DNA from: Gammaproteobacteria bacterium | Lineage (GTDB): Bacteria; Pseudomonadota; Gammaproteobacteria; Steroidobacterales; Steroidobacteraceae | Length of the DNA: 24,136 bases | Direction of reading: 5' to 3' | Assembly (NCBI GenBank): GCA_034667865.1 | Contig: JAXDQN010000240.1 | Location: forward strand, 1 to 24,136 | Part shown: positions 1,129 through 18,669 of the stretch, piece after piece | Numbering within the stretch: position 1 is the first letter of the stretch | Layout of the letters: every line of letters begins with the position of its first letter | The notes under the pieces: model-generated | What the model was told of the DNA's origin: nothing | The model's database searches: none | Seen by the model: the letters and a program-made list of their open reading frames with translations, nothing else | Made by a program: the position numbers and the translations under genes

Positions 1129-3123
1129 TTGAACCACCACGACATAACCCCTGCGAAACCTGCTCCCGACCGTCAGTTGCGCACACGGCTGATACTGGCG
1201 GTTGCCTTGAGTTACGCCATCGATGGCCTGATTCTCAGCGGCTTTGCGGCGGCAGGCGTCATCAGCTTCGAAGTGCCGCTGCTGTACACCCTCGCCGGCT
1301 TGTCGACCATGGCGGCCTTTTGGCTGCTGCGCATGTGGGCGCTCAAGCGCAACTTCGGCGACGGCGAATTCGCACTGTCCCAGGTGATTGTCGCCAGCGC
1401 ACTGCTGCTCAGCTTCGCTGCCGCCACGCCGCCTTTGGCATTCTATTTTTTCACCGTGCTGTTCGTCGTGTTCGGCTGCGGGAGTCTCGGCCTATCGGGC
1501 CGACAGTCCGCAATTGCGTGGGTGGCTGTGGCCATTGCGGCCGCGATGACCATGTCGGCCGTTCACGCGCGCATCGTCATTCCGCAAGACTCCACGTTGG
1601 CTCGCACACTGGTGCTGTTGTGCTTCGTTGCCACTCTCGGGCGATGCATATTGCTGGGCAGCTTGGCTCGTAGCCTGCGCATGCGGCTGCAGGATCGCCG
1701 CCGGCAGTTGCGCGAGTCGGTGCGCATGCTGGAAGAGCGCGACAAATCGCTGGCGCAAGTGAATCTGGAATTGAAACGGCAGGCCACGCACGACGCCCTC
1801 ACCGGCATCGCCAACCGGGTGTTGTTCGTCGAGCAACTGCAGCGCGCCGTCGCTCAGCCGCAGCCATTCGCAGTATGCGTCTTCGATCTGGATCGTTTCA
1901 AAATCATCAACGATTCGCTGGGCCATGGCGCAGGCGATGCGCTGCTCAAGCACGTGTCCGACCGGCTGCTGTCCATCACCCGTGCCTCGGACACGGTGGC
2001 GCGCGCCGGTGGCGATGAATTCCTGCTGCTGCTGCGCGACATGCGCTCCGCAGAAGAAATCGAAGCTTTGATCGCGCGCTGGATGCTGGCGCTGGCCCAG
2101 CCCTATCATCTCACCGGACTGGAATTGCATGTCAATCCGAGCATTGGCATTGCGCGTTATCCAAAGGATGGCACGCTCGCCGAAGAACTCTTGGCGCGCG
2201 CCGACGAGGCGATGTATTACGCCAAGCGCACTGGGCGCAATACCTTCCGATTCTTCGATTCCAGCGTCATGGGCTTCTCGCGCGAACGCTTGGAGATCGA
2301 AGCGGAGCTGCGCGGCGCACTGGCACAGGGTCAGCTGGTATTGCACTACCAGCCGAAGATCGACATCGCCACCGGCGAAATGCGCAGCGTCGAGGCGCTG
2401 ATCCGTTGGAATCATCCGACGCGCGGCGCCGTGCTGCCGGGAGAATTCATTCCGATCGCCGAAGAGAGCGGCCTGATTCTGGAAATCGGCGACTGGGTGA
2501 TTCGCGAGGCGTGCCGGCAAGCATGTGAATGGCAGCGGCAAGGAATGCCGTTCTTGCGGGTTGCGGTCAATGTATCGCCGCTGCAATTCCGCCAGGCCAA
2601 CTTCGTCAAGAAACTCAGCGCCGCACTGAAGGAATTCTCCTTGGAAGCGACTTTTCTCGAGATCGAGTTGACCGAGGCGACGTTGATGAGCAACGCTGAA
2701 AGCTCCGTCACCTTGCTGAACGAATTGAGCCAGCTCGGCGTGGTCGTCGCCGTCGATGATTTTGGCACCGGTTATTCCAGCATGAGTTATTTGCAGCGCT
2801 TTCCAATCGACAAACTCAAGATCGACCGCAGCTTCATCAGTGATGTGGCCTCAAACGCCGGCGATGCGTCGATCGTGCGCGCCATCATCTCCTTGGCGCA
2901 CGGACTGCGCCTGAAAGTCATTGCGGAAGGCGTGGAGTCCGAACAGCAGCTTGGAATTCTGCGCCGCATGGGCTGCGATCAATATCAAGGCTTCTATCGC
3001 AGCGCCGCCGTTCCGGCCATCGACATCGAGCGTTTCGCGCGGCGCGATCAGCGTCTGCAGCCGCACGGCGAGACCGATATCGATCGCACTCACAGCAAGT
3101 TGTTCCGTCTGCGCGAAGCGTAA
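1129..3123 (+). CDS. Membrane-anchored diguanylate cyclase/phosphodiesterase (multi-TM + GGDEF + EAL)
   Basis: Hydrophobic N-terminal ~180 aa; DALTGIANR, DLDRFKIINDSLGH, RASD...GGDEF; EAL, VNVS, ELTE, DDFGTGYSS, KIDRSF, EGVE, QG. The TTG start is uncertain (weak RBS). Confidence 0.93.
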   Translation: MNHHDITPAKPAPDRQLRTRLILAVALSYAIDGLILSGFAAAGVISFEVPLLYTLAGLSTMAAFWLLRMWALKRNFGDGEFALSQVIVASALLLSFAAATPPLAFYFFTVLFVVFGCGSLGLSGRQSAIAWVAVAIAAAMTMSAVHARIVIPQDSTLARTLVLLCFVATLGRCILLGSLARSLRMRLQDRRRQLRESVRMLEERDKSLAQVNLELKRQATHDALTGIANRVLFVEQLQRAVAQPQPFAVCVFDLDRFKIINDSLGHGAGDALLKHVSDRLLSITRASDTVARAGGDEFLLLLRDMRSAEEIEALIARWMLALAQPYHLTGLELHVNPSIGIARYPKDGTLAEELLARADEAMYYAKRTGRNTFRFFDSSVMGFSRERLEIEAELRGALAQGQLVLHYQPKIDIATGEMRSVEALIRWNHPTRGAVLPGEFIPIAEESGLILEIGDWVIREACRQACEWQRQGMPFLRVAVNVSPLQFRQANFVKKLSAALKEFSLEATFLEIELTEATLMSNAESSVTLLNELSQLGVVVAVDDFGTGYSSMSYLQRFPIDKLKIDRSFISDVASNAGDASIVRAIISLAHGLRLKVIAEGVESEQQLGILRRMGCDQYQGFYRSAAVPAIDIERFARRDQRLQPHGETDIDRTHSKLFRLREA

Positions 3124-9001: not shown

Positions 9002-9385
9002 GTGCGTGCGGAATTGGTCAACGTATTGACGCGTACTCGACTGATGGATGCACTTGTCGAAGATGGCCTGAATGTTGCACTCCCGTTATATGCGAGCAGC
9101 GTCGATATCTTGGCGTATAACAATCCGCCGAGTTCCAGCTGCCACATTGTTTCGGTCCCGATTCGCGTGAAATTGATAAATCGCCTGGCGCTTCCGCGAG
9201 ACTTCGAGACCGAGCTTCCGGATGACGCGCGGTCAGTGGCGCAGAAAGATCAAGGCGATGCTGCAGAGTTGAGCGACAGAGTTGAGCGTTTTGTCAGGCT
9301 GCAATTTCGCGGGCATGTTGCTGCAAGAGCGACTCGGACGAAATCTGCCTGCGGCCACGTCCGGCGAGCGTTTGAGTACTCATAG
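9002..9385 (+). CDS. Hypothetical protein; N-terminal half resembles a PD-(D/E)XK nuclease-like fold, possibly degenerate
   Basis: GAGG RBS 8 nt before the GTG; pattern AEL...L..DGLNVALP....VDILAY...VPIRVK. The C-terminus is doubtful and overlaps the BLUF gene by 92 nt. Confidence 0.4.
   Translation: MRAELVNVLTRTRLMDALVEDGLNVALPLYASSVDILAYNNPPSSSCHIVSVPIRVKLINRLALPRDFETELPDDARSVAQKDQGDAAELSDRVERFVRLQFRGHVAARATRTKSACGHVRRAFEYS
9264..9288. repeat. Tandem direct repeat, 2 x CAGAGTTGAGCG (13-nt period)
   Basis: Identical 12-mers at 9264-9275 and 9277-9288. Confidence 0.85.
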
Positions 9386-9848
9386 ATGCGGCTCGTTGCT
9401 TCCGCTCAACGATGAGTTTGCCGGTTCCACACGAATTCCTGGCGTGCAGCAACAATTGATCGGCGACATCCACATCGATGCTATTTAGGTGAGTTGCGGA
9501 TTCTGCCGTCAATCGGGGGATGACCAGCCCCGCTGATTCTGACCATACGACCTCGCAGTAGCCTAGCTGCCAGGGCAAAAAAGCGCGTTCCCGGGCCGGC
9601 CGAGCCACGAGTACCGTAACTTCGGCATGGCGCTTGTCGCGCGCAATTGTCCGGTAGACGGCATCCACCATTCCAGCCTCGCCTTCGAGCTGCTGTATGT
9701 AAAACCCATCGATGCGAATCAGCATGCTGGTGATAAGACGCTTGGTGTTGCAGCACCGAGCCTGCCGGAGCATGCGAAGTTGCTCGCTCTCCTCCAACGC
9801 CGCTGCACGGCTCACGTAAATAAGTTGGGAAACTTGCGTGATGATCAA
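9294..9848 (-). CDS. BLUF-domain blue-light sensor (variant)
   Basis: LIYVSRA, ARCCN, ITSML, YIQQLEG, IARDKRH and RAFLPWQL match the BLUF pattern. The TTG start is uncertain. Confidence 0.82.
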   Translation of the reverse strand: MIITQVSQLIYVSRAAALEESEQLRMLRQARCCNTKRLITSMLIRIDGFYIQQLEGEAGMVDAVYRTIARDKRHAEVTVLVARPARERAFLPWQLGYCEVVWSESAGLVIPRLTAESATHLNSIDVDVADQLLLHARNSCGTGKLIVERKQRAASMSTQTLAGRGRRQISSESLLQQHAREIAA

Positions 9849-10232: not shown

Positions 10233-12059
10233 TCAGTACGCCAACGCCAGACCGTCCGCGCGCATTTCGCTCGCCGCCGCATACACCCGCGTCGACCCGT
10301 TCATGCGATGTTCGATGCATTCGTAACGGCCAAATCCGCCGTCCGACGCACCCATCGGCCAACCGAGCCGAATCAGCGCTTTGCGCGTGGCTTCGGGCAC
10401 GCCGGACTCCAGACGCAACACACCCGTGGGGCCAAAGCCCGGCGCATCCTCGCCCATGCTTTGCGATGATCCCTCGTGATGCCAACGCGGACTGTCGCCG
10501 GCCGCCTGGATATCGAGCCCGTAGTCGACGCGATCGATGATGATTTGCGCCTGGCCCTGGGGCTGCATGTCCCCACCCATCACGCCGAACGACATCCACG
10601 GCTGACCGTTCTTGGTGGCGAATCCCGGGATGATGGTCTGAAACGGCCGCTTGCCCGGCTGATAAATATTGGGATGTCCGTCGACCAAGGAGAATAATTG
10701 GCCGCGATCTTGGAACATGAAGCCCAGCCCGTCGGCCACCAAACCTGAACCCATGCCGCGGAAGTTGGACTGAATGATGGAAATCATCATGCCATTCGCG
10801 TCGGCGACCGTGAAATAGGTGGTGTCGCCGTGACTTGGCGCCTGACCCGGGTAGATCGGCGTCAGAATTTTGTCCGGGCGAATCAGCTTGGCGCGCTGCG
10901 CCGCGTATTCCTTGGAGTTCAACCATTCGACCGGAACCTTGGCGAAGTGCGGATCGGCGTAGTAGCGCGCTCGATCCTCGTAGGCCAAACGCTTCGCCTC
11001 CGCCTGGGCGTGGAATGATGCGGCCGACTGGAATCCCATCTCCTTCAAATCGAAGTTTTCCAAAATGTTGAGCATCTGCAGCGTCGCCAATCCCTGGGTG
11101 TTGGCCGCCATCGCATATACATCCACACCGCGGTACTTGGTTACCAGCGGATCACCCCACTCGGCATGTTGGTCGCGCAAATCCTCGTACGACAGCCACC
11201 CGCCGATGCGCTTGAAGTAGGCATCGATCGTGTGCGCGATGGGCCCTGCGTAGAAGGCATCACGTCCGCCTTGCGCAATCATTTTGTAGGTGCGCGCCAG
11301 ATCCGGGTTGCGAAATACATCGCCCTCATGCGGCGCCTTGCCCGACGGCGCATAGGTGTGCATGGCATTCTCGGTTTCTTCGACGCCGGAATCAGGCCGG
11401 CGGAAAAACGTCAGATTGCGATCGATGTAGTAGCCGATGATTTGCGGCACCGGCACGCCTTCTTCGCACAAATGAATGGCCGGCGCGAACAGTTCGGCCC
11501 ATTTCAACTTTCCGTAGCGCTGATGCAGGGTCCACCAGGCATCGCAAGCGCCCGGCGTCGAGACGGAAACCGCGCCGAGCGGAGCGATCGTGCCGTTCTT
11601 GGCGCGCGCACGCTGCGTCTCCAGGGTCAAAGCCCGCGGCGAGCGGCCGGATCCCGCCAGGCTGATCACCTTGCCGAGTTTCGGATCCCAAACGAAGGCA
11701 AAGCAATCACCGCCTAACCCTGAACTGGTGGGTTCGAGAAAACCCAGGCAGGCATTGGCGGCGATCGCCGCATCCGCCGCCGAGCCGCCGCGCTTCAAGG
11801 TTTCGATCGCCGTCAAGGTCGCGATGGGATGCGCGGTGCCGGCGGCACCCGAACATCCATAAGCCGCGGATCTCGACGCAAAGCTGGCACCGGCCGGGCG
11901 GTCGCCGGCATGGACGTCGGGACGATCAAAGCGTCCGGCGTCCGGCGGCTGAAATTTCGCGAGGGCTGTGCTCGCATCGGAATCCGCACCAACGCGCTGG
12001 AAAGGAAGTGCGCCTGCGGCGGCCAGCGGCAAGGCACCTAAAAATGATCGACGACGCAT
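10233..12059 (-). CDS. ggt: Gamma-glutamyltransferase family Ntn-hydrolase with a Tat signal (608 aa)
   Basis: MRRRSFLG twin-arginine signal, GGSAADAAIA, EPTSSGLGGDCF, VSVSTPG, HGDTTYFTVAD (autoprocessing Thr), GKRPFQTIIP, GVMGGDMQPQG. An AGGAG RBS favours ATG 12059 over 12080. Confidence 0.9.
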   Translation of the reverse strand: MRRRSFLGALPLAAAGALPFQRVGADSDASTALAKFQPPDAGRFDRPDVHAGDRPAGASFASRSAAYGCSGAAGTAHPIATLTAIETLKRGGSAADAAIAANACLGFLEPTSSGLGGDCFAFVWDPKLGKVISLAGSGRSPRALTLETQRARAKNGTIAPLGAVSVSTPGACDAWWTLHQRYGKLKWAELFAPAIHLCEEGVPVPQIIGYYIDRNLTFFRRPDSGVEETENAMHTYAPSGKAPHEGDVFRNPDLARTYKMIAQGGRDAFYAGPIAHTIDAYFKRIGGWLSYEDLRDQHAEWGDPLVTKYRGVDVYAMAANTQGLATLQMLNILENFDLKEMGFQSAASFHAQAEAKRLAYEDRARYYADPHFAKVPVEWLNSKEYAAQRAKLIRPDKILTPIYPGQAPSHGDTTYFTVADANGMMISIIQSNFRGMGSGLVADGLGFMFQDRGQLFSLVDGHPNIYQPGKRPFQTIIPGFATKNGQPWMSFGVMGGDMQPQGQAQIIIDRVDYGLDIQAAGDSPRWHHEGSSQSMGEDAPGFGPTGVLRLESGVPEATRKALIRLGWPMGASDGGFGRYECIEHRMNGSTRVYAAASEMRADGLALAY

Positions 12060-12086
12060 GAAGCTCTCTCTCCTGAACAACGAAAC

Positions 12087-12452
12087 TTAGGACGCGCCGC
12101 GACCTCGCGCGGCAACTTCGACATGCTGCTGCGTGGGAGACAGCGCCTCGACCAACGCCTCGAGGGCGCGTTGGGGGTTCGCAGTCCCGCACATGAATAT
12201 ATCCACGGCCGCAAAATCGGATTCGGGCCAAGTGTGGATGGAAATATGCGATTCAGCCAGCAGCACCACCCCGGTTACTCCGTGGGCGCTGCCAAAGCTG
12301 TGGAAGTGGCTGCCGACGACTTTGGCGCCGGCGAGTTCGGCGGCACCGCGCAACAGCGCTTCCAACTCGCCGCCACTGCGCAGCAACCGCGCCGAGACTC
12401 CGTAGAAGTCGGCCAGTATGTGACTGCCGACCATGCCTACCGATCCGCTCAT
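12087..12452 (-). CDS. speD: S-adenosylmethionine decarboxylase proenzyme (short, class 1B-like)
   Basis: GSHILADFYG, HSF...GVTGVVLLAESHISIHTWPE (E-S pyruvoyl cleavage site), AVDIFMCG. Confidence 0.93.
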   Translation of the reverse strand: MSGSVGMVGSHILADFYGVSARLLRSGGELEALLRGAAELAGAKVVGSHFHSFGSAHGVTGVVLLAESHISIHTWPESDFAAVDIFMCGTANPQRALEALVEALSPTQQHVEVAARGRGAS

Positions 12453-12634
12453 TTATGGCCGCCGCCTCCGCCGCCGGCCCACCCGCCGCCGCTGTACCCC
12501 GGACCCGACGACCACGAGTGCCAGGAGTTGCCCGTGCCCTGCCCGCCCGCTGCTCGACGCGCGAGCGCCGACCAGCTTGCCAACGAACATAGCAACGACA
12601 CGATGATGGAATAAGCCAGGAATTTGTTTCTCAT
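12449..12634 (-). CDS. 61-aa membrane-anchored or secreted Gly/Ser/Trp-rich peptide ending GGGGGGHK
   Basis: ATGA overlaps with both neighbours (12631-12634 and 12449-12452); one N-terminal hydrophobic helix and a low-complexity tail. Confidence 0.8.
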   Translation of the reverse strand: MRNKFLAYSIIVSLLCSLASWSALARRAAGGQGTGNSWHSWSSGPGYSGGGWAGGGGGGHK

Positions 12635-14079
12635 TGGCCCTTGGCATCCAGCCGATCGAGAAAATACGCCGGCAGGTAGATGCCTGCGGCCGCGAGCAGC
12701 GCGTACGGCAGTACGTTGGAGGTCACGAACAGCAGCGGGATGGCGTTAACCAAGGCCAAACCAATGAGAATCTTGCGGGCCGTCTCGCGGTAGGCCGGAT
12801 GTGGCGCCACGTCGGCATGCACGTGTCCGCCGAACCAGGCCCGCACCTGATCCAGAGGCGCAGGCACAGAGCGCGACCACGTCAGTTCTGCGGCGGTCGA
12901 TTCTGCCGCCAGCCGCACGGAGCCGCCGCTGAACTCATTCACCTGGGTAACATCCCCGACACTGACCCGCCAATTGAAAGAACCGGCGGCAAACATCACG
13001 CGCGCCGCGTACGCCGCGCTTTGGTTGAAGCGCATGCCATCGAGATTTGCATGACCCGCGCCGTCCCACCCAGGCCAGCGGTCTAGTACTTCCGCCCGTT
13101 GCCAACCCTCGTCGGTTTCGATCAGCCAGATGAATTTCTGTCGCGGCGAATACAACAGATATTCGCTCCAGCTGGATCCGTCGTCGCTTTCCGAGCGCCG
13201 CATGGCGCCCAGGATGGTGTAGTGATTGCCGCCGATCATCGCCTCGGATCCCAGCGCCAAGGTGAAGCGCACCGCTTCCACGGCCGCGCCGGCCGCCAAC
13301 ACTTTCGCAACGGCACCGGACGTATCCACCTCGGCATGACAACTCGGACACACGATGTGCACGGTAATGCCGGCGACGCAACTGACCGGCGCGCCGCACG
13401 AGGGGCAGGCCAGTGCGCTTACTTTTCCGTGAAAGCGGCCCGCGGCGTCTTTGATTTGGTCCGCATCGCGCAACAACTGCGGTTTCAGATCAATCAGCTG
13501 CACGGCTTGGCCGACGAATACTTTCGTCGCTGCCGGGTCCGAATAATCCAGACTTAAGAATCGATCAGCGGTGCGGAAATCCGCGACTTTTGCCACCCAA
13601 CCCTGGCCCACCTTGAAGGGCAATTCGCCTTGGCCCGCGGTGCATTGGGCGGTTCTGACATCGGAGGTCGCATACAGCTGCCCCGAGACCGTCATGACAT
13701 GGCCGGGCACGAGTTTCTCGAACAGCGGTAATGCCGCGTCCGTCGCTTGGGCAAACGTCATGGTGTACTGACCGGATGCATCGGACAGCCAGCCGTTGCT
13801 GCCGTCATCGAACAGCACGTACCACTCATTCCAGTAGCCATCCGCATACTGCAGCTGGATCCGGCCGATCAGGGAAAAGGAGCGCGGGCCAAACTGGCCC
13901 GAGGTGCCGATCTGCAGCGGCGAATAGTCCTCGAACACCTCCGACATCTTGCCGAGATTGCTGACTGAATCGGCGTCCTTGAGCAGCGTGGTCTTGCAAA
14001 ACTGACACACGACCATCACCGAGGCAGCCGATTTGAACTGCACCGGCGCCCCGCATCCGGGACAGCTGACTTGCTGCAT
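12631..14079 (-). CDS. DUF4178-domain protein with two Zn-ribbon + DUF4178-like repeats and a C-terminal membrane anchor
   Basis: CPGCG...CQFC and CPSCG...CPSC; GRIQLQY..GYWNEW and W.EYLLY...WL motifs; YA...FxW.V..G; hydrophobic C-terminus; GAGGA RBS. Confidence 0.85.
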   Translation of the reverse strand: MQQVSCPGCGAPVQFKSAASVMVVCQFCKTTLLKDADSVSNLGKMSEVFEDYSPLQIGTSGQFGPRSFSLIGRIQLQYADGYWNEWYVLFDDGSNGWLSDASGQYTMTFAQATDAALPLFEKLVPGHVMTVSGQLYATSDVRTAQCTAGQGELPFKVGQGWVAKVADFRTADRFLSLDYSDPAATKVFVGQAVQLIDLKPQLLRDADQIKDAAGRFHGKVSALACPSCGAPVSCVAGITVHIVCPSCHAEVDTSGAVAKVLAAGAAVEAVRFTLALGSEAMIGGNHYTILGAMRRSESDDGSSWSEYLLYSPRQKFIWLIETDEGWQRAEVLDRWPGWDGAGHANLDGMRFNQSAAYAARVMFAAGSFNWRVSVGDVTQVNEFSGGSVRLAAESTAAELTWSRSVPAPLDQVRAWFGGHVHADVAPHPAYRETARKILIGLALVNAIPLLFVTSNVLPYALLAAAGIYLPAYFLDRLDAKGQ

Positions 14080-14098
14080 CCCGCGCTTCCTCTGGTTA

Positions 14099-15115
14099 TT
14101 AGCCGACCAGTCTCTTCAGCACTTCGGCTTTCGCCGTTTCGAAATCGCCGGCGGAGATCAGGCCTTTGTCTAGAAGGCTCTTTAGTTGCCCCAAACGCGC
14201 TTCCGGGTCCGCTGCACCTGGGGTTGCTTCCGCGGCCGCAGGTGTAGCGGGCTTTTGCGCGCCGGCCAATCCCTGCGCCATGGTCTGGCCCAAAACGAGG
14301 CCGGCCGAAAGGCTGGCGCCAACGCCGGCCATGCCGCCTTCATTTTGCGCGGCCAACGGTATGGCGTTTGCCACCTGATACTGGGTGTATTTATTCAGGT
14401 CGCCCGACATGCCAATGGCAATTCTCTTATCGAGCGCCGCTTGCAGGTCCTCCGGCAAATTGATGCTGGTCACGTTGAACACATCCAGCGCCAGGCCATA
14501 GTTGCCAAACGCCGACTGAATGGCCGCCTTGACTTCGTTGGCCATCAAAGTCTGGTTCGCAGCCATGTCCAGAAACGGCTTCGTGGATGCACCCAGCGAG
14601 GCGGCCATGGTCGATACCACGATGCCGCGCAACTGCTCTTCCAAATCATCGCGCGTGTAGACCGCGCGCGTGCCGCTGATGCCGGTAAAGAATTTGCGCG
14701 CGTCAGACACGGCGTAGGAATACATGCCAAAGGCGCGCAGTCGGACCATGCCGAAATCGGCGTCGCGCAAGCTAATGGCCTGCGGCGTGCCCCACTTGCG
14801 CCCGGTCTGCAGCCGGGTGCTGAAGAAATAAACATCCGATTTGAACGGCGATTCGAACAATTTGTCCCAATTCTTGAGGTAGGTCAGCACCGGCAAGGTC
14901 TGGGTTGTCAGTTTGTACATGCCGGGCGAAAATACATCCGCGATTTTGCCTTCATTGACGAACACGGCCACCTGCGACTCGCGCACGGTTAGACTGCCGC
15001 CGTATTGAATCTCGAAATCCTGCATCGGATAGCGCCACGCCAACACCCCGTCGGTGTCCTCGTTCCATTGCAGAATATCGATGAACTGTTTCTTGATGAA
15101 AGATCCGAGGCTCAT
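14099..15115 (-). CDS. SPFH/band-7 domain protein (YdjI-like) with a C-terminal SHOCT-like domain
   Basis: LTVRESQVAVFVNEG, GMYKLTT..LPVL, SPFKSDVYF, KWGT, LRAFG.YS; C-terminal RLGQLKSLLDKGLISAGDFETAKAEVL; GGAG RBS. Confidence 0.87.
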   Translation of the reverse strand: MSLGSFIKKQFIDILQWNEDTDGVLAWRYPMQDFEIQYGGSLTVRESQVAVFVNEGKIADVFSPGMYKLTTQTLPVLTYLKNWDKLFESPFKSDVYFFSTRLQTGRKWGTPQAISLRDADFGMVRLRAFGMYSYAVSDARKFFTGISGTRAVYTRDDLEEQLRGIVVSTMAASLGASTKPFLDMAANQTLMANEVKAAIQSAFGNYGLALDVFNVTSINLPEDLQAALDKRIAIGMSGDLNKYTQYQVANAIPLAAQNEGGMAGVGASLSAGLVLGQTMAQGLAGAQKPATPAAAEATPGAADPEARLGQLKSLLDKGLISAGDFETAKAEVLKRLVG

Positions 15116-15139
15116 GGCAATCTCCGTCAGGACGATGAA

Positions 15140-15526
15140 TTAAGAAAGAGCACCCGCGCTCAGCGCGCCGACCGAAATTGAAATTGACGCCAGCAACACA
15201 CCGAAGGCCACGTTGTTGCCTTCGATTTGCTGTTTGGACATGTGCAATAGATGCGAGACCAGAATGTACGTCAGCAGCTGTACGGCGGCCGCCGCGGCGG
15301 ACCAGGCTGCAAACGATGCCAGGTTATCGGTGTGCAACAATCCTGAGGCCACCGTCATGGAGAAACCCACCAAGGCGCCCCCCAAGGTTAGCGCTGCGGC
15401 GACATTGCCCTGGCGGATGAGCTTCAGTTCATCGAAGGGCACCACCCAGGTGTAGACCAGAAAAAAAACGAACAGCAACAGGCCCGCGGTGACGAGGTGC
15501 AAGGCATAATTGATGACAATGTTCAC
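15140..15526 (-). CDS. DUF350 (YjfL-like) inner-membrane protein
   Basis: Four hydrophobic helices and duplicated LIRQGNVAAA / IEGNNVAFG motifs; GGAGG RBS before the GTG. Confidence 0.88.
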   Translation of the reverse strand: MNIVINYALHLVTAGLLLFVFFLVYTWVVPFDELKLIRQGNVAAALTLGGALVGFSMTVASGLLHTDNLASFAAWSAAAAAVQLLTYILVSHLLHMSKQQIEGNNVAFGVLLASISISVGALSAGALS

Positions 15527-15550
15527 AGTGCCCTCCCTGATGCAATGTTC
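15511..15550. repeat. Imperfect direct repeat TGATG(A)CAATGTTC spanning the divergent start region
   Basis: TGATGACAATGTTC at 15511-15524 and TGATGCAATGTTC at 15538-15550. Confidence 0.7.
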
Positions 15551-17056
15551 GACCGCATTCTAGTAATTTCCATCTTCTTTGTCGCCTCCTGCGGACTGGC
15601 CTACGAATTGATCGCCGGGGCCTTGTCGAGCTACCTGCTCGGCGATTCAGTGCTGCAGTTCTCGACCGTGATCGGATGCTACCTGTTTGCCATGGGCGTG
15701 GGCGCCCATCTGTCGCGTTATGTTCGAGACGAGCAGGTATTGGCGCGATTCGTGGATGTCGAGCTGGCCATAGGCCTGATCGGCGGGGTGTCGGCTGCGC
15801 TGCTGTTCCTGGCTTTCGCCTGGTTGGCGGCGCCGTTTCGTGCCCTGCTGTACGTGCTGGTGTTCCTGATCGGCGCGTTGATCGGTATGGAGATTCCGTT
15901 GGTGATGCGCGCATTACATGCCCGCCAAGCCCAGTTTGCGGATCTTGTCAGCCGGGTGCTGACTTTCGACTACCTCGGCGCACTTGCGGTGGCGCTGCTT
16001 TTTCCCATGGTGCTGGCGCCGCATCTGGGGCTCACGCGTACCGCCTTCCTGTTCGGCATGGTAAACGTTGCCGTGGCGCTCTGGACGATCCATGGCTTCG
16101 GCGATGCGATCGACCATCCGCGGCGGCGGGTGCTGCGCGCCGCGATTGTGTTCGTGGTGCTCGGCGCCGGCTTCGTCGGCGCGGAACGGCTGGTGTATTG
16201 GAGCGAACGCGGCATGTATGGCGATGAAATCGTGCACGCCATCACCACGCCCTATCAGCGTCTGGTCATTACGCGCTGGAAGGATGATCTGCGCCTTTAC
16301 ATCAATGGCAATTTGCAATTCTCTTCGCGCGACGAGCATCGCTATCACGAAGCCTTGGTGCATCCGGCCCTGCAATCGCTGCCCTGGGCGCGTTCCGTTC
16401 TGATCCTGGGCGGCGGTGACGGCCTGGCGCTGCGCGAAGTCTTGCGCTACCCGTCGATTCAAAAGGTGACCCTGGTTGATCTCGACCCGGAGATGACGCG
16501 TTTGTTTTCATCTTCCGAGCCGCTGACCGCTCTCAATCACAACTCCTTTCACGATGCGCGGGTGCACTTGATAAACGCCGATGCGGCGCTCTGGATCGAA
16601 TCGGGGGAGGAAAGCTTCGATGTCGCCTTCGTCGACTTTCCCGATCCATCGAATTTCGCCTTGGGGAAACTGTATTCGGTGCCGTTCTATGCACTTTTGA
16701 AGAAACATGTCGCTGCCCATGGACTGGTGGTGGTGCAGGCGACCTCGCCCTACTTCGCGCCGCATGCCTATTGGTCGATTGAAGCCACGTTGCGCGAGAG
16801 CGGCTTCAAAACTTTTCCGTATCACACCTACGTGCCATCGTTTGGCGAATGGGGCTTCATTCTTGCGGGCGCCGAGACCGAATTCTCGCCGCCCACCGAT
16901 TACCGCCTGCCCATGCGCTATCTGAATGCCGAGGTCACGCGTGAAATGTTCAGTTTTCCTCCCGACATGCAGCGTATCGCTGTCGAAGCGAACCATCTCA
17001 ACAGTCAAGCGCTGGTGCGCTACTTCGACGAGGACTGGCATCGAGTGATTCGCTGA
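15545..17056 (+). CDS. speE: Membrane-fused polyamine aminopropyltransferase (spermidine-synthase-like, 503 aa)
   Basis: N-terminal ~215 aa multi-TM region (YEL...LSSYLLGDSVLQFS); catalytic domain with LQFSSRDEHRYHEALVHP, VLILGGGDG, VDLD, DFPDP, SFGEWGF. Confidence 0.92.
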   Translation: MFDRILVISIFFVASCGLAYELIAGALSSYLLGDSVLQFSTVIGCYLFAMGVGAHLSRYVRDEQVLARFVDVELAIGLIGGVSAALLFLAFAWLAAPFRALLYVLVFLIGALIGMEIPLVMRALHARQAQFADLVSRVLTFDYLGALAVALLFPMVLAPHLGLTRTAFLFGMVNVAVALWTIHGFGDAIDHPRRRVLRAAIVFVVLGAGFVGAERLVYWSERGMYGDEIVHAITTPYQRLVITRWKDDLRLYINGNLQFSSRDEHRYHEALVHPALQSLPWARSVLILGGGDGLALREVLRYPSIQKVTLVDLDPEMTRLFSSSEPLTALNHNSFHDARVHLINADAALWIESGEESFDVAFVDFPDPSNFALGKLYSVPFYALLKKHVAAHGLVVVQATSPYFAPHAYWSIEATLRESGFKTFPYHTYVPSFGEWGFILAGAETEFSPPTDYRLPMRYLNAEVTREMFSFPPDMQRIAVEANHLNSQALVRYFDEDWHRVIR

Positions 17057-18669
17057 TGCGGCGTAGGGAATTCGTTCTGGCCGCCGCGGCTCTGGCGGGC
17101 GGCGGCACCGCCGTATTCCTCGAACAGCAGCGCATGCAGTCCAGCGTCAATTATCCGGGGCGCGAGCAGGGTCACCGTCTGCGCGATCTGCGCTCGCTGT
17201 CGCAACCGGCCGAGACCGTGGAAACCGATGTGCTGATCGCCGGATCCGGCATTGCGGGACTCACCGCCGCGTGGCAGTTGAAGAAACATGGCGTGAAGGA
17301 TCTGCTGCTGGTGGGCGGCCCGGAATGGCATGGCAATGCAGCCGCCGGCCAGGATGGCGATTTGGTGTTTCCCACCGGCGCGCACTATCTGCCCCTGCCT
17401 TCCATGGAATCGCTTCACGTGCGCGAGATGTTGGCGGAATTCGGCTTACTCCATGGCGATCCCTACGCGGTCCGCCCGAGCTTCGATGAGCGTTACCTGG
17501 TGCATGCGCCGGCCGAGCGGGTGTTGTACCGCGGTGCTTGGCAGGATGGCTACCTGCCCGTCGAAGATGTCAGCGCGTCCGAGCGTGCCGATCATGAGAA
17601 ATTCTTCGGCATCGTCGAGTGGTACACCAACGCCCGGGGCAGCGATGGCCGGCGCGCCTTCGCCGTGCCGCTGGAGCTGTCCTCCAACGATGAGGACTTC
17701 CGCCGGCTCGATCAACTCTCGTTCAATGCTTGGTTGAACGCGGCGGAGCTGAATGCGCCGACCCTGCGCTGGTACCTGAATTACTGCTGCCGCGACGACT
17801 ATGGCCGCCACTACGATGAGATATCAGCCTGGGCCGGTTTGCACTATTTCTGCAGCCGCGACGGACAAGCGGCCAATGCCGAACGCGGCGCCGTTCTCAC
17901 CTGGCCCCAAGGTCTGGGTGCGCTCGCCGCACGCTTGGAAGCGGCGGCCTCGGTGCAGCGAGCGTGGAGTACGGCCAGCGTCGCGCGGCTCGAGGTGGTC
18001 GACGGCGCGGTCGAAGCGATGCTACTGGTACCCCACGGCAACGACTGGCGTGCGGTGCGCGTCAGAGCCAGACAGGCGATCGCGGCGATGCCGCTGTTCG
18101 TATTGCAGCATGTTTTCCCCGGTCTTTCAGGCTATGGCTTCGTGAGCGCACGCGACGTGCCGGCATATGCGCCCTGGCTGGTATCCAATTTCATCATGCG
18201 CGCGTTTCCGGAGGAGAAAGGCGGAACGCCATTGGCGTGGGACAACGTCATCTACAAGGAACCGGGCCTGGGCTACGTGGTGTCGACCCACCAGGACATT
18301 CGCATGAGCCGGCCTGCCCGCACCGCATTCACCGCCTATCATGCGCTGTCCGATCTCGAGCCCAACGCTGCGCGTCAATGGCTGGATCGCGCCAGCGTCG
18401 CCGATCTCACCGATGCCGCCAGCAAGGATTTGCGGCTGGCGTACGGCTGGCGCCTGCCGCTGTGCGTGGAAAGAATCGCCGTCACGGTTCGCGCCCATGC
18501 CATGGCTGTGCCCGAACCCGGGTTCCTGGCCAATCCGGGAAGAATCGCATTGCGCAGCACCAGCGGGCCGATTTTTTTCGCACATTCGGATCTGTCAGGT
18601 CTATCCCTGTTCGAAGAGGCCGCGTGGTGGGGATATCGAGCTGCCGCGCGCGCGCTCGCGGCGCGCTAA
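17056..18669 (+). CDS. Flavin-dependent amine oxidoreductase family protein with a twin-arginine-like N-terminus
   Basis: MRRREFVL, IAGSGIAGLTAA FAD motif, GAHYLP, RDDYG...SAWAGLHYF, AWDNV, HSDLSGLSLFEEA; TGATG coupling to the aminopropyltransferase. Confidence 0.88.
   Translation: MRRREFVLAAAALAGGGTAVFLEQQRMQSSVNYPGREQGHRLRDLRSLSQPAETVETDVLIAGSGIAGLTAAWQLKKHGVKDLLLVGGPEWHGNAAAGQDGDLVFPTGAHYLPLPSMESLHVREMLAEFGLLHGDPYAVRPSFDERYLVHAPAERVLYRGAWQDGYLPVEDVSASERADHEKFFGIVEWYTNARGSDGRRAFAVPLELSSNDEDFRRLDQLSFNAWLNAAELNAPTLRWYLNYCCRDDYGRHYDEISAWAGLHYFCSRDGQAANAERGAVLTWPQGLGALAARLEAAASVQRAWSTASVARLEVVDGAVEAMLLVPHGNDWRAVRVRARQAIAAMPLFVLQHVFPGLSGYGFVSARDVPAYAPWLVSNFIMRAFPEEKGGTPLAWDNVIYKEPGLGYVVSTHQDIRMSRPARTAFTAYHALSDLEPNAARQWLDRASVADLTDAASKDLRLAYGWRLPLCVERIAVTVRAHAMAVPEPGFLANPGRIALRSTSGPIFFAHSDLSGLSLFEEAAWWGYRAAARALAAR

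Follow-up and report, generated by a model that had tools for sequence, protein, structure and literature searches.

A conserved gene module for putative aminopropyl transfer at the membrane in a genome of the Steroidobacteraceae

What does a spermidine-synthase-like enzyme modify when it is fused to a membrane domain and encoded next to its own S-adenosylmethionine (SAM) decarboxylase, an amine oxidase with an export signal and a set of membrane or scaffold-like proteins? This question is raised by a cluster of seven genes (positions 12087-18669) on contig JAXDQN010000240.1 of the gammaproteobacterial assembly GCA_034667865.1 (Steroidobacterales; Steroidobacteraceae); the window, as the term is used below, is the whole stretch of 24,136 nucleotides that was analysed (positions 1 to 24,136 of the contig, forward strand). 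The initial annotation of this DNA had proposed a membrane complex that makes or exports an aminopropyl or polyamine group, or attaches it to an envelope target, and edits it oxidatively. Our analysis leads to a graded answer. That the cluster is a dedicated module for aminopropyl transfer at the membrane is well supported, and an envelope-bound acceptor is plausible; to the combined reading, in which the genes form a dedicated envelope module and do not serve housekeeping spermidine synthesis, we assign a probability of about 0.45. The locus is another copy of a module that is already in print without an assigned substrate.

The seven genes were located by the listing of open reading frames and by Pfam and NCBIfam searches, on which the family assignments given below rest (zinc ribbons and the terminal hairpin were read from the sequence and its hydropathy), and all of the domains named in the initial annotation were found. 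The tight packing described there was also confirmed, while the impression of a single seven-gene array was not, as the genes form two units arranged head to head. The minus-strand unit begins with the gene of a DUF350 protein (15140-15526, GTG start) and continues with those of an SPFH protein (14099-15115), a zinc-ribbon protein with two DUF4178 stretches (12631-14079), a glycine-rich micropeptide (12449-12634) and the SAM decarboxylase SpeD (12087-12452); the plus-strand unit consists of the membrane-fused transferase (15545-17056) and the flavin amine oxidase (17056-18669). The ATGA and TGATG junctions and the gaps of less than 25 nt reported earlier can be read directly from the sequence: 4-nt ATGA overlaps at the peptide/speD and DUF4178/peptide junctions make the peptide gene translationally coupled on both sides, a TGATG junction couples the transferase and oxidase genes in the same way, and the remaining intergenic gaps measure 19 and 24 nt. 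Between the GTG of the DUF350 gene and the ATG of the transferase gene lie only 18 nt (15527-15544), so any promoters must fall within the opposing coding regions. A minus-strand promoter-like site (GCGACA-17-TAGAAT, 15585-15557) is situated within the first codons of the transferase gene, so that the control regions of the two units probably overlap; overall, promoter and terminator scans yielded no more than the shuffled expectation. In one soil RNA library, scattered contigs match parts of the module with 95-99% identity, this signal being too sparse, and possibly due to contaminating DNA, to speak for expression or operon structure.

The view that the seven genes act as one conserved functional module, expressed in the initial annotation, is strengthened by their neighbourhoods in other organisms. 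One genome per species was scanned with an alignment of the transferase. Of the 596 confirmed relatives that this gave, the 80 best loci were retained and searched by tblastn with the window proteins, many of the misses being due to short contigs. The oxidase was found in 59 of these loci, DUF4178 in 58, the SPFH protein in 55 (at 52-76% identity) and SpeD in 51, a clustering far beyond chance. The set occurs together in Betaproteobacteria, Moraxellaceae, Acidobacteriota and Gemmatimonadota, and in two gene orders. Betaproteobacteria share the divergent layout of the window, and in Acidobacteriota and Gemmatimonadota all genes are co-directional in the order SPFH, SpeD, DUF4178, peptide, short DUF350, transferase, oxidase. 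The partners keep together also when the transferase gene has moved: in Neisseria sicca the genes for DUF350, SPFH, DUF4178, a 54-aa peptide ending in GGHK, SpeD and the oxidase are clustered (L115:2844-8397), and the transferase gene stands apart, between purF-like and sulfite-reductase-like genes (L053:9992-11506). Among five genomes with a stand-alone fusion gene, all encode SpeD and four encode DUF4178.

Within its own lineage the module is patchy, being present in 5 of the 24 genomes searched of the same genus, and just 4 of the 151 genomes of the order exceed the family cut-off. Moreover, two types of the module occur in one genus (locus L015 compared with L014, L017 and L018): one is 85-94% identical to that of the window and has the divergent layout, and the other is 53% identical, co-directional and similar to the acidobacterial type. 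The presence of two types suggests independent horizontal acquisitions and, together with the patchy distribution, speaks for an accessory function that spreads by horizontal transfer.

The central enzyme is a protein of 503 aa, in which seven membrane helices resembling one half of a major facilitator superfamily (MFS) transporter (residues 2-211) and a linker helix (213-225) precede a complete domain of the spermidine synthase fold (226-503). It belongs to the family NF002956/PRK03612 (682.8 bits against a cut-off of 472), fails the canonical speE equivalog TIGR00417 (120.2 bits against 249.55) and also stays under the cut-off of the "fused MFS/spermidine synthase" family NF037959 (25 bits, cut-off 40). 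The same succession of seven long helices, linker helix and spermidine synthase fold is seen in its AlphaFold 2 (AF2) model (predicted local distance difference test, pLDDT, 89.3). The best solved relatives of the catalytic domain are SpeE of Thermus thermophilus (1uir/3anx) and a plant thermospermine synthase (6bq2). Across 50 homologues (45-74% identity) there is no variation in GGGDG (289-293), D312/D314, D346 and D364-x-P-D367-P, a set that covers the glycine-rich loop specific for dcSAM, acidic positions that bind ribose and adenine, and the catalytic Asp pair; GGGDG and D364/D367 align with GGGEG and DLTDP of the Thermus enzyme. Thus, the catalytic fold and all motifs of dcSAM (decarboxylated SAM) binding and catalysis are shared with canonical SpeE proteins (1uir/3anx, 1inl, 3o4f, 2o05); these, however, are soluble proteins of about 280-310 aa, whereas the window transferase possesses 225 additional N-terminal residues that make up the seven membrane helices, and a family-specific acceptor-site motif, D-F-P-D-P, in place of the DLTDP of Thermus SpeE. 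Judging from the invariant motifs and the modelled helices, the transferase should be an intact aminopropyltransferase of the dcSAM-using type fused to a membrane domain, in agreement with the initial annotation. Three acidic residues within the membrane helices, E21, E116 and D142, are likewise invariant in the 50 homologues, and one may speculate that they would suit a cationic cargo. The same fold is found in Ralstonia (Q8XQC5/Q8XQC8), Mycobacterium tuberculosis (Rv2601) and Shewanella (Q8EAX8), and in Swiss-Prot the whole architecture is represented by proteins of Ralstonia (two copies, 66% identity), Leptospira, Rhodopirellula, Streptomyces, Aquifex, M. tuberculosis (Rv2601) and Shewanella. 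Apart from this, language-model features, and these only, pick out stand-alone look-alikes of residues 1-225 (15545-16219), 212-234 aa long, in Bdellovibrionota and Myxococcota, as well as a weaker likeness to MFS proteins. At one locus of the same genus (L017:8686-10199) the transferase orthologue is split over three frames (residues 1-241, 241-339 and 340-503) between intact neighbours, and represents either a pseudogene or an assembly error.

The donor for such a transferase would come from the speD product, a class 1b SAM decarboxylase proenzyme of 121 aa (PF02675, 124 bits; TIGR03330, 128.6 bits against a cut-off of 75.65). Its motif ESHISIHTWPE...FMCG supplies Ser71, His76 and Cys91, an intact catalytic triad with the same spacing (+5, +20) as S63/H68/C83 of the Thermotoga maritima enzyme, which have been named essential (PMC10407285). 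The protein has no signal peptide and should therefore be cytoplasmic.

On which side of the membrane the transferase would act can be predicted from the charges of its loops. Averaged over the 50 homologues, the number of lysines and arginines is 2.9, 3.7 and 3.2 in loops 2, 4 and 6, against 0, 0.02 and 0.6 in loops 1, 3 and 5; the linker behind helix 7 is acidic (0.4 Lys/Arg against 3.0 Asp/Glu). With the N-terminus inside and seven helices to cross, the spermidine synthase domain is predicted to be periplasmic, that is, on the same side as the oxidase and the tail of the micropeptide.

As for the oxidase (537 aa), the N-terminus MRRREFVLAAAALAGG contains the twin-arginine motif RRREF, followed by a hydrophobic stretch, and an RRxF-type motif of twin-arginine translocation (Tat) occurs in 35 of the 37 homologues checked, several of which then have a lipobox-like cysteine. 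The protein matches PF13450 (35.6 bits) and PF01593 (22.4 bits, cut-off 19.8); in its N-terminal FAD-binding motif of the Rossmann GxGxxG type, GSGIAG (residues 63-68), no exchange occurs at G63 and G65 and hardly any at G68. A single-sequence search of the PDB returned no match. With the AF2 model (pLDDT 92.0), the top PDB matches found by Foldseek were putrescine oxidase (2yg3/2yg7; template modelling scores of 0.63/0.74, E about 1e-19), bacterial monoamine oxidase (MAO; 8p84/9h5p), MAO-B and the spermidine dehydrogenase SpdH (7d9h), and a profile search also recovered L-amino acid oxidase (LAAO), putrescine oxidase (PuO), SpdH and LSD1. The Tat-like amine oxidoreductase of the initial annotation is thus a flavin amine oxidase by its predicted two-domain fold, and its conserved signal predicts export.

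The most peculiar member of the set is the micropeptide of 61 aa, for which neither Pfam nor NCBIfam gave a match. It consists of a single N-terminal hydrophobic helix and a tail rich in glycine, serine and tryptophan that ends in GGGGGGHK. A counterpart lies 3' of the DUF4178 gene in 56 of the 57 evaluable loci, and in one further locus it is frameshifted; the homologous peptides likewise have one hydrophobic helix and a tail rich in Gly, Ser, Tyr and Trp. The tails end in GGGHK in Betaproteobacteria and in GGK or YHK in Acidobacteria, and in the alignment of 38 micropeptides the C-terminal lysine is the only invariant column. Peptides of the acidobacterial type have, in addition, a conserved small-x-Ala in front of [QEDH]-[YF]-x-G-W-S, which resembles a signal-peptidase site. 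The frameshifted copy (L029, reverse strand, about 14500-14700) changes frame within a run of glycine codons and has its ...GGGGHK in the next frame; a slippage-prone tract and a sequencing error are both possible.

The neighbour of the peptide gene encodes a protein of 482 aa (PF13785, 84.8 bits) in the order zinc ribbon, DUF4178, zinc ribbon, DUF4178 and, at the C-terminus, a hydrophobic helical hairpin (residues 433-474); the ribbons read CPGCG...CQFCK and CPSCG...CPSCH. Considering that it lacks a signal peptide and carries zinc ribbons, its soluble body should be cytoplasmic. In two Moraxellaceae (L045:13691-15433 and L048:7484-9190) a single reading frame encodes the DUF4178 protein and, after its two-helix hairpin, the Lys-terminated peptide rich in Gly and Ser. 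With a cytoplasmic DUF4178 body, a fusion at this point would place the N-terminus of the peptide inside and its tail outside the cytoplasm.

There remain an SPFH and a DUF350 protein. The SPFH protein (338 aa, Band_7_1, YdjI-type) matches PF13421 with 237.9 bits and PF01145 with 67.7 bits; the SHOCT part claimed for it earlier is weak, its C-terminal helix pair scoring 23 bits against a cut-off of 27. The DUF350 protein (128 aa, YjfL family; PF03994, 105.2 bits) has four hydrophobic segments, and operons of the acidobacterial type encode a two-helix version of about 70 aa directly 5' of the transferase gene. According to the Pfam scan and the translations of the window, the cluster contains no PspA or CesT gene.

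Parts of this picture have been drawn before. Li, Kurihara, Kim, Liang and Michael reportedly described, in 2019, genes of active class 1b SAM decarboxylases linked to membrane spermidine synthase fusions and DUF350 in hosts without spermidine. The fusion is said to have failed to complement an Escherichia coli speE mutant; an acceptor other than putrescine was reportedly inferred. Gene sets of the type seen here are in print as polyamine-linked operons of the PSP type (Ravi, Anantharaman et al., 2024, mSystems, PMC11237479): they comprise the 7TM-spermine-synthase, DUF350, DUF4178 and a low-complexity lipoprotein that is exported, and variants in which Band-7/SHOCT proteins stand in for the CesT-PspA pair include an AdoMet decarboxylase as well as a polyamine oxidase. 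What these operons monitor, it is proposed there with reference to Li et al. (2019), are polyamines "or aminopropylation of other substrates". The window matches this set in its AdoMet decarboxylase, membrane spermidine synthase fusion, DUF350, DUF4178, Band-7 and polyamine-oxidase-type genes, the SHOCT part being weak; an exported small low-complexity protein is common to both, the Shewanella version of the published system being given as "LipoSIG+Ctha_1186+Low-comp", and the window transferase has the fold of Q8EAX8 from Shewanella, the species that provided the example operon. In contrast to the separate operon groups of that paper, for which it gives no function, the window combines the parts in two divergent units. 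The invariant C-terminal lysine, the DUF4178 fusion and the predicted periplasmic position of the catalytic domain were not found in the parts of PMC11237479 that were read. The statement of the initial annotation that the gene association is known and its substrate is not assigned agrees with this paper, and our literature search found no publication after 2024 that characterises the module or assigns a substrate to it. A sibling system, also treated in PMC11237479, is that of the yjfIJKLMC-type operons of E. coli, in which DUF350 likewise occurs with an enzyme of the polyamine type, a small exported lipoprotein and a scaffold for membrane stress. Their enzyme, however, is a glutathionylspermidine-synthase-like ATP-grasp ligase, necessarily cytoplasmic, whereas that of the window is an aminopropyltransferase, and their partners (DUF2491, a DUF1190 lipoprotein and PspA/YjfJ) are different as well.

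The envelope reading can be put together as follows. SpeD, to judge by its family and its triad, would make dcSAM in the cytoplasm, and the catalytic domain of the transferase would act at the periplasmic face, behind the seven membrane helices, supplied perhaps by the MFS-half-like domain, through which either dcSAM or the amine acceptor would cross the membrane. As acceptor, an amine at the outside of the inner membrane would serve, and the C-terminal lysine of the micropeptide is the strongest candidate; a free di- or polyamine, an amine of an envelope lipid or one of peptidoglycan could take its place. The Tat-exported flavoprotein, similar to putrescine oxidase and MAO, could then oxidise the aminopropylated product, either trimming it or producing a reactive aldehyde, and the SPFH-SHOCT, zinc-ribbon DUF4178 and DUF350 proteins may form a membrane scaffold that holds peptide and enzyme together. 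In its most specific version, the periplasmic domain would use dcSAM carried by its own transporter-like domain and aminopropylate, perhaps repeatedly, the terminal lysine of the micropeptide, the product being oxidised by the flavoprotein; this version we consider rather unlikely. Aminoalkyl or polyamine chains built on protein lysines are known from eukaryotes, namely the long-chain polyamine lysines of silaffins and hypusine. These belong to other organisms and are made by other enzymes, so that they provide a conceptual parallel to the lysine of the micropeptide only.

Several points weigh against the envelope reading and against its lysine version in particular. The periplasmic position of the catalytic domain is a prediction from the positive-inside rule and from helix counting. 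It would oblige dcSAM to cross the membrane, an export step that we purely infer, and to our knowledge a periplasmic dcSAM-using domain has no well-established precedent. The orientation of the micropeptide is left undecided by the charges that flank its helix (0.9 Lys/Arg before it and 1.5 after), and its C-terminal lysine has a carboxylate in the place of the second amine expected by spermidine synthases. Complex prediction from the alignments of the transferase and the micropeptide gave 0.02 (mark 0.32), a result which is listed here but is evidence neither way. NCBIfam separates the "MFS/SpdSyn" family NF037959, which is ascribed to Li et al., from PRK03612, the family of the window transferase. 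Finally, SpeD is the sole PF02675 match in the genome, and neither a second gene of the spermidine synthase fold nor a separate soluble speE, the search for which the initial annotation had recommended, was found in this metagenome-assembled genome (85% complete, 660 contigs); as the only SpeD/SpeE pair, the module is also the only visible route to spermidine.

This last point speaks for a different interpretation, in which agmatine, putrescine or spermidine receives the aminopropyl group, the product is exported by the membrane domain, and the oxidase acts on it in the periplasm (for instance, turning spermidine or thermospermine into 1,3-diaminopropane or norspermidine), so that the module would supply a free polyamine to the envelope and the scaffold would tie it to the handling of membrane stress. 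We consider this quite possible. Although the window contains no putrescine-forming enzyme, as had been noted initially, the genome encodes elsewhere the biosynthetic arginine decarboxylase speA (NF003763, 850 bits), an agmatine deiminase and an arginase-family protein, with no carboxynorspermidine decarboxylase (nspC) over the cut-off, so a canonical acceptor is probably available. Of the initial proposal, the part concerning a membrane module for aminopropyl transfer is upheld by conservation and motifs, and the part concerning an envelope acceptor is no more than plausible, since agmatine and probably putrescine can be made and the SpeD/SpeE pair is the sole one. The structural relatives point in the same direction: the catalytic domain is nearest to T. 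thermophilus SpeE and thermospermine synthase, both users of free polyamines, and the oxidase fold is nearest to putrescine oxidase, a putrescine-binding bacterial MAO and SpdH. There is, besides, a model for such a pathway in Pseudomonas aeruginosa, where SpeD2-SpeE2 (PA4773-PA4774), a second class 1b SpeD and an atypical aminopropyltransferase tied to envelope protection, are proposed to give norspermidine together with the Tat-exported SpdH (PMC11107197), a protein that is among the structural matches of the window oxidase. However, SpeE2 is a soluble thermospermine synthase of 349 aa without a membrane domain, which aligns with the catalytic domain of the window transferase only (29% identity), and SPFH, DUF4178, DUF350 and micropeptide partners are all missing from the P. 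aeruginosa system. While the location of the transferase gene among housekeeping genes in some genomes would also suit a free polyamine, this interpretation leaves unexplained the universal Lys-terminated micropeptide and the DUF4178 and SPFH partners, as well as the fact that the partners remain linked to SpeD and the oxidase where the transferase gene has been relocated. A catalytic domain predicted to be periplasmic fits poorly with synthesis in the cytoplasm followed by export, and the patchiness (5/24 in the genus, 4/151 in the order) and the two types in one genus are unlike the behaviour of housekeeping genes. The reported lack of spermidine in hosts of such fusions, and the reported failure to complement speE, would count against it as well.

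The same patchy distribution, with its look of horizontal transfer, could be taken in favour of the phage defence suggested in the initial annotation, that is, of an anti-phage or abortive-infection system with aminopropylation or amine oxidation (H2O2, aldehydes) as the effector, and SPFH and membrane proteins do occur in some defence systems. Against this, PADLOC-DB 2.0 gave no match for six of the proteins, and for the spermidine synthase domain only a generic match of the Rossmann methyltransferase fold to mad2 (47 bits), with nothing specific to defence; no nuclease, NTPase sensor or other defence hallmark was seen in the seven genes, nor any phage or mobile-element genes in the annotated parts of the flanks. 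Defence is therefore a very improbable function. Least credible of all is a fortuitous adjacency of an ordinary polyamine gene pair and an unrelated SPFH/DUF4178/DUF350 membrane operon: the divergent transcription of the two gene sets and the separate position of the transferase gene in other genomes would be compatible with it, but it is contradicted by the recurrence of the seven-gene set across dozens of genomes of different phyla, in two orders and with translational coupling, next to flanking genes that vary even within a genus.

The acceptor question reaches well beyond this genome, for the module or its membrane "spermidine synthase" is present in thousands of bacterial genomes, the carriers including Ralstonia, Cupriavidus, Burkholderia, commensal Neisseria, Leptospira and M. 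tuberculosis (Rv2601). Annotation pipelines name the membrane protein a polyamine aminopropyltransferase. If its acceptor is not a free polyamine, these annotations mislead, and they would hide an unexplored envelope chemistry, namely aminopropylation that takes place on the outside of the inner membrane and is linked to a flotillin-like scaffold. Were the lysine of the micropeptide indeed modified in the periplasm, peptidyl-lysine aminopropylation would count as a new kind of post-translational modification in bacteria and dcSAM, as far as we know, as the first SAM-derived cofactor shown to act outside the bacterial cytoplasm. The terminal lysine, the natural fusion with DUF4178 and the predicted outside-facing topology make the question directly approachable.

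Some neighbours of the cluster deserve mention. Downstream of speD lies a gene for a gamma-glutamyltranspeptidase (GGT; 10233-12080, minus strand; PF01019, 461 bits) with a twin-arginine N-terminus; it begins, preceded by a GGAGAG ribosome-binding site, 27 nt beyond the stop codon of speD, and nothing like a terminator separates the two genes. The earlier idea that it might be an eighth member of the module was rejected: GGT adjoins the module in none of the 80 loci and in neither of the two same-genus loci with enough flank. Its co-transcription with speD in this lineage is possible; one contig of the soil RNA library crosses the speD-GGT junction. A small protein on the minus strand (9294-9848) was labelled earlier as a putative BLUF protein from its translation only, and the plus strand encodes, at 1129-3123, a membrane protein in the translation of which GGDEF- and EAL-type motifs can be read.

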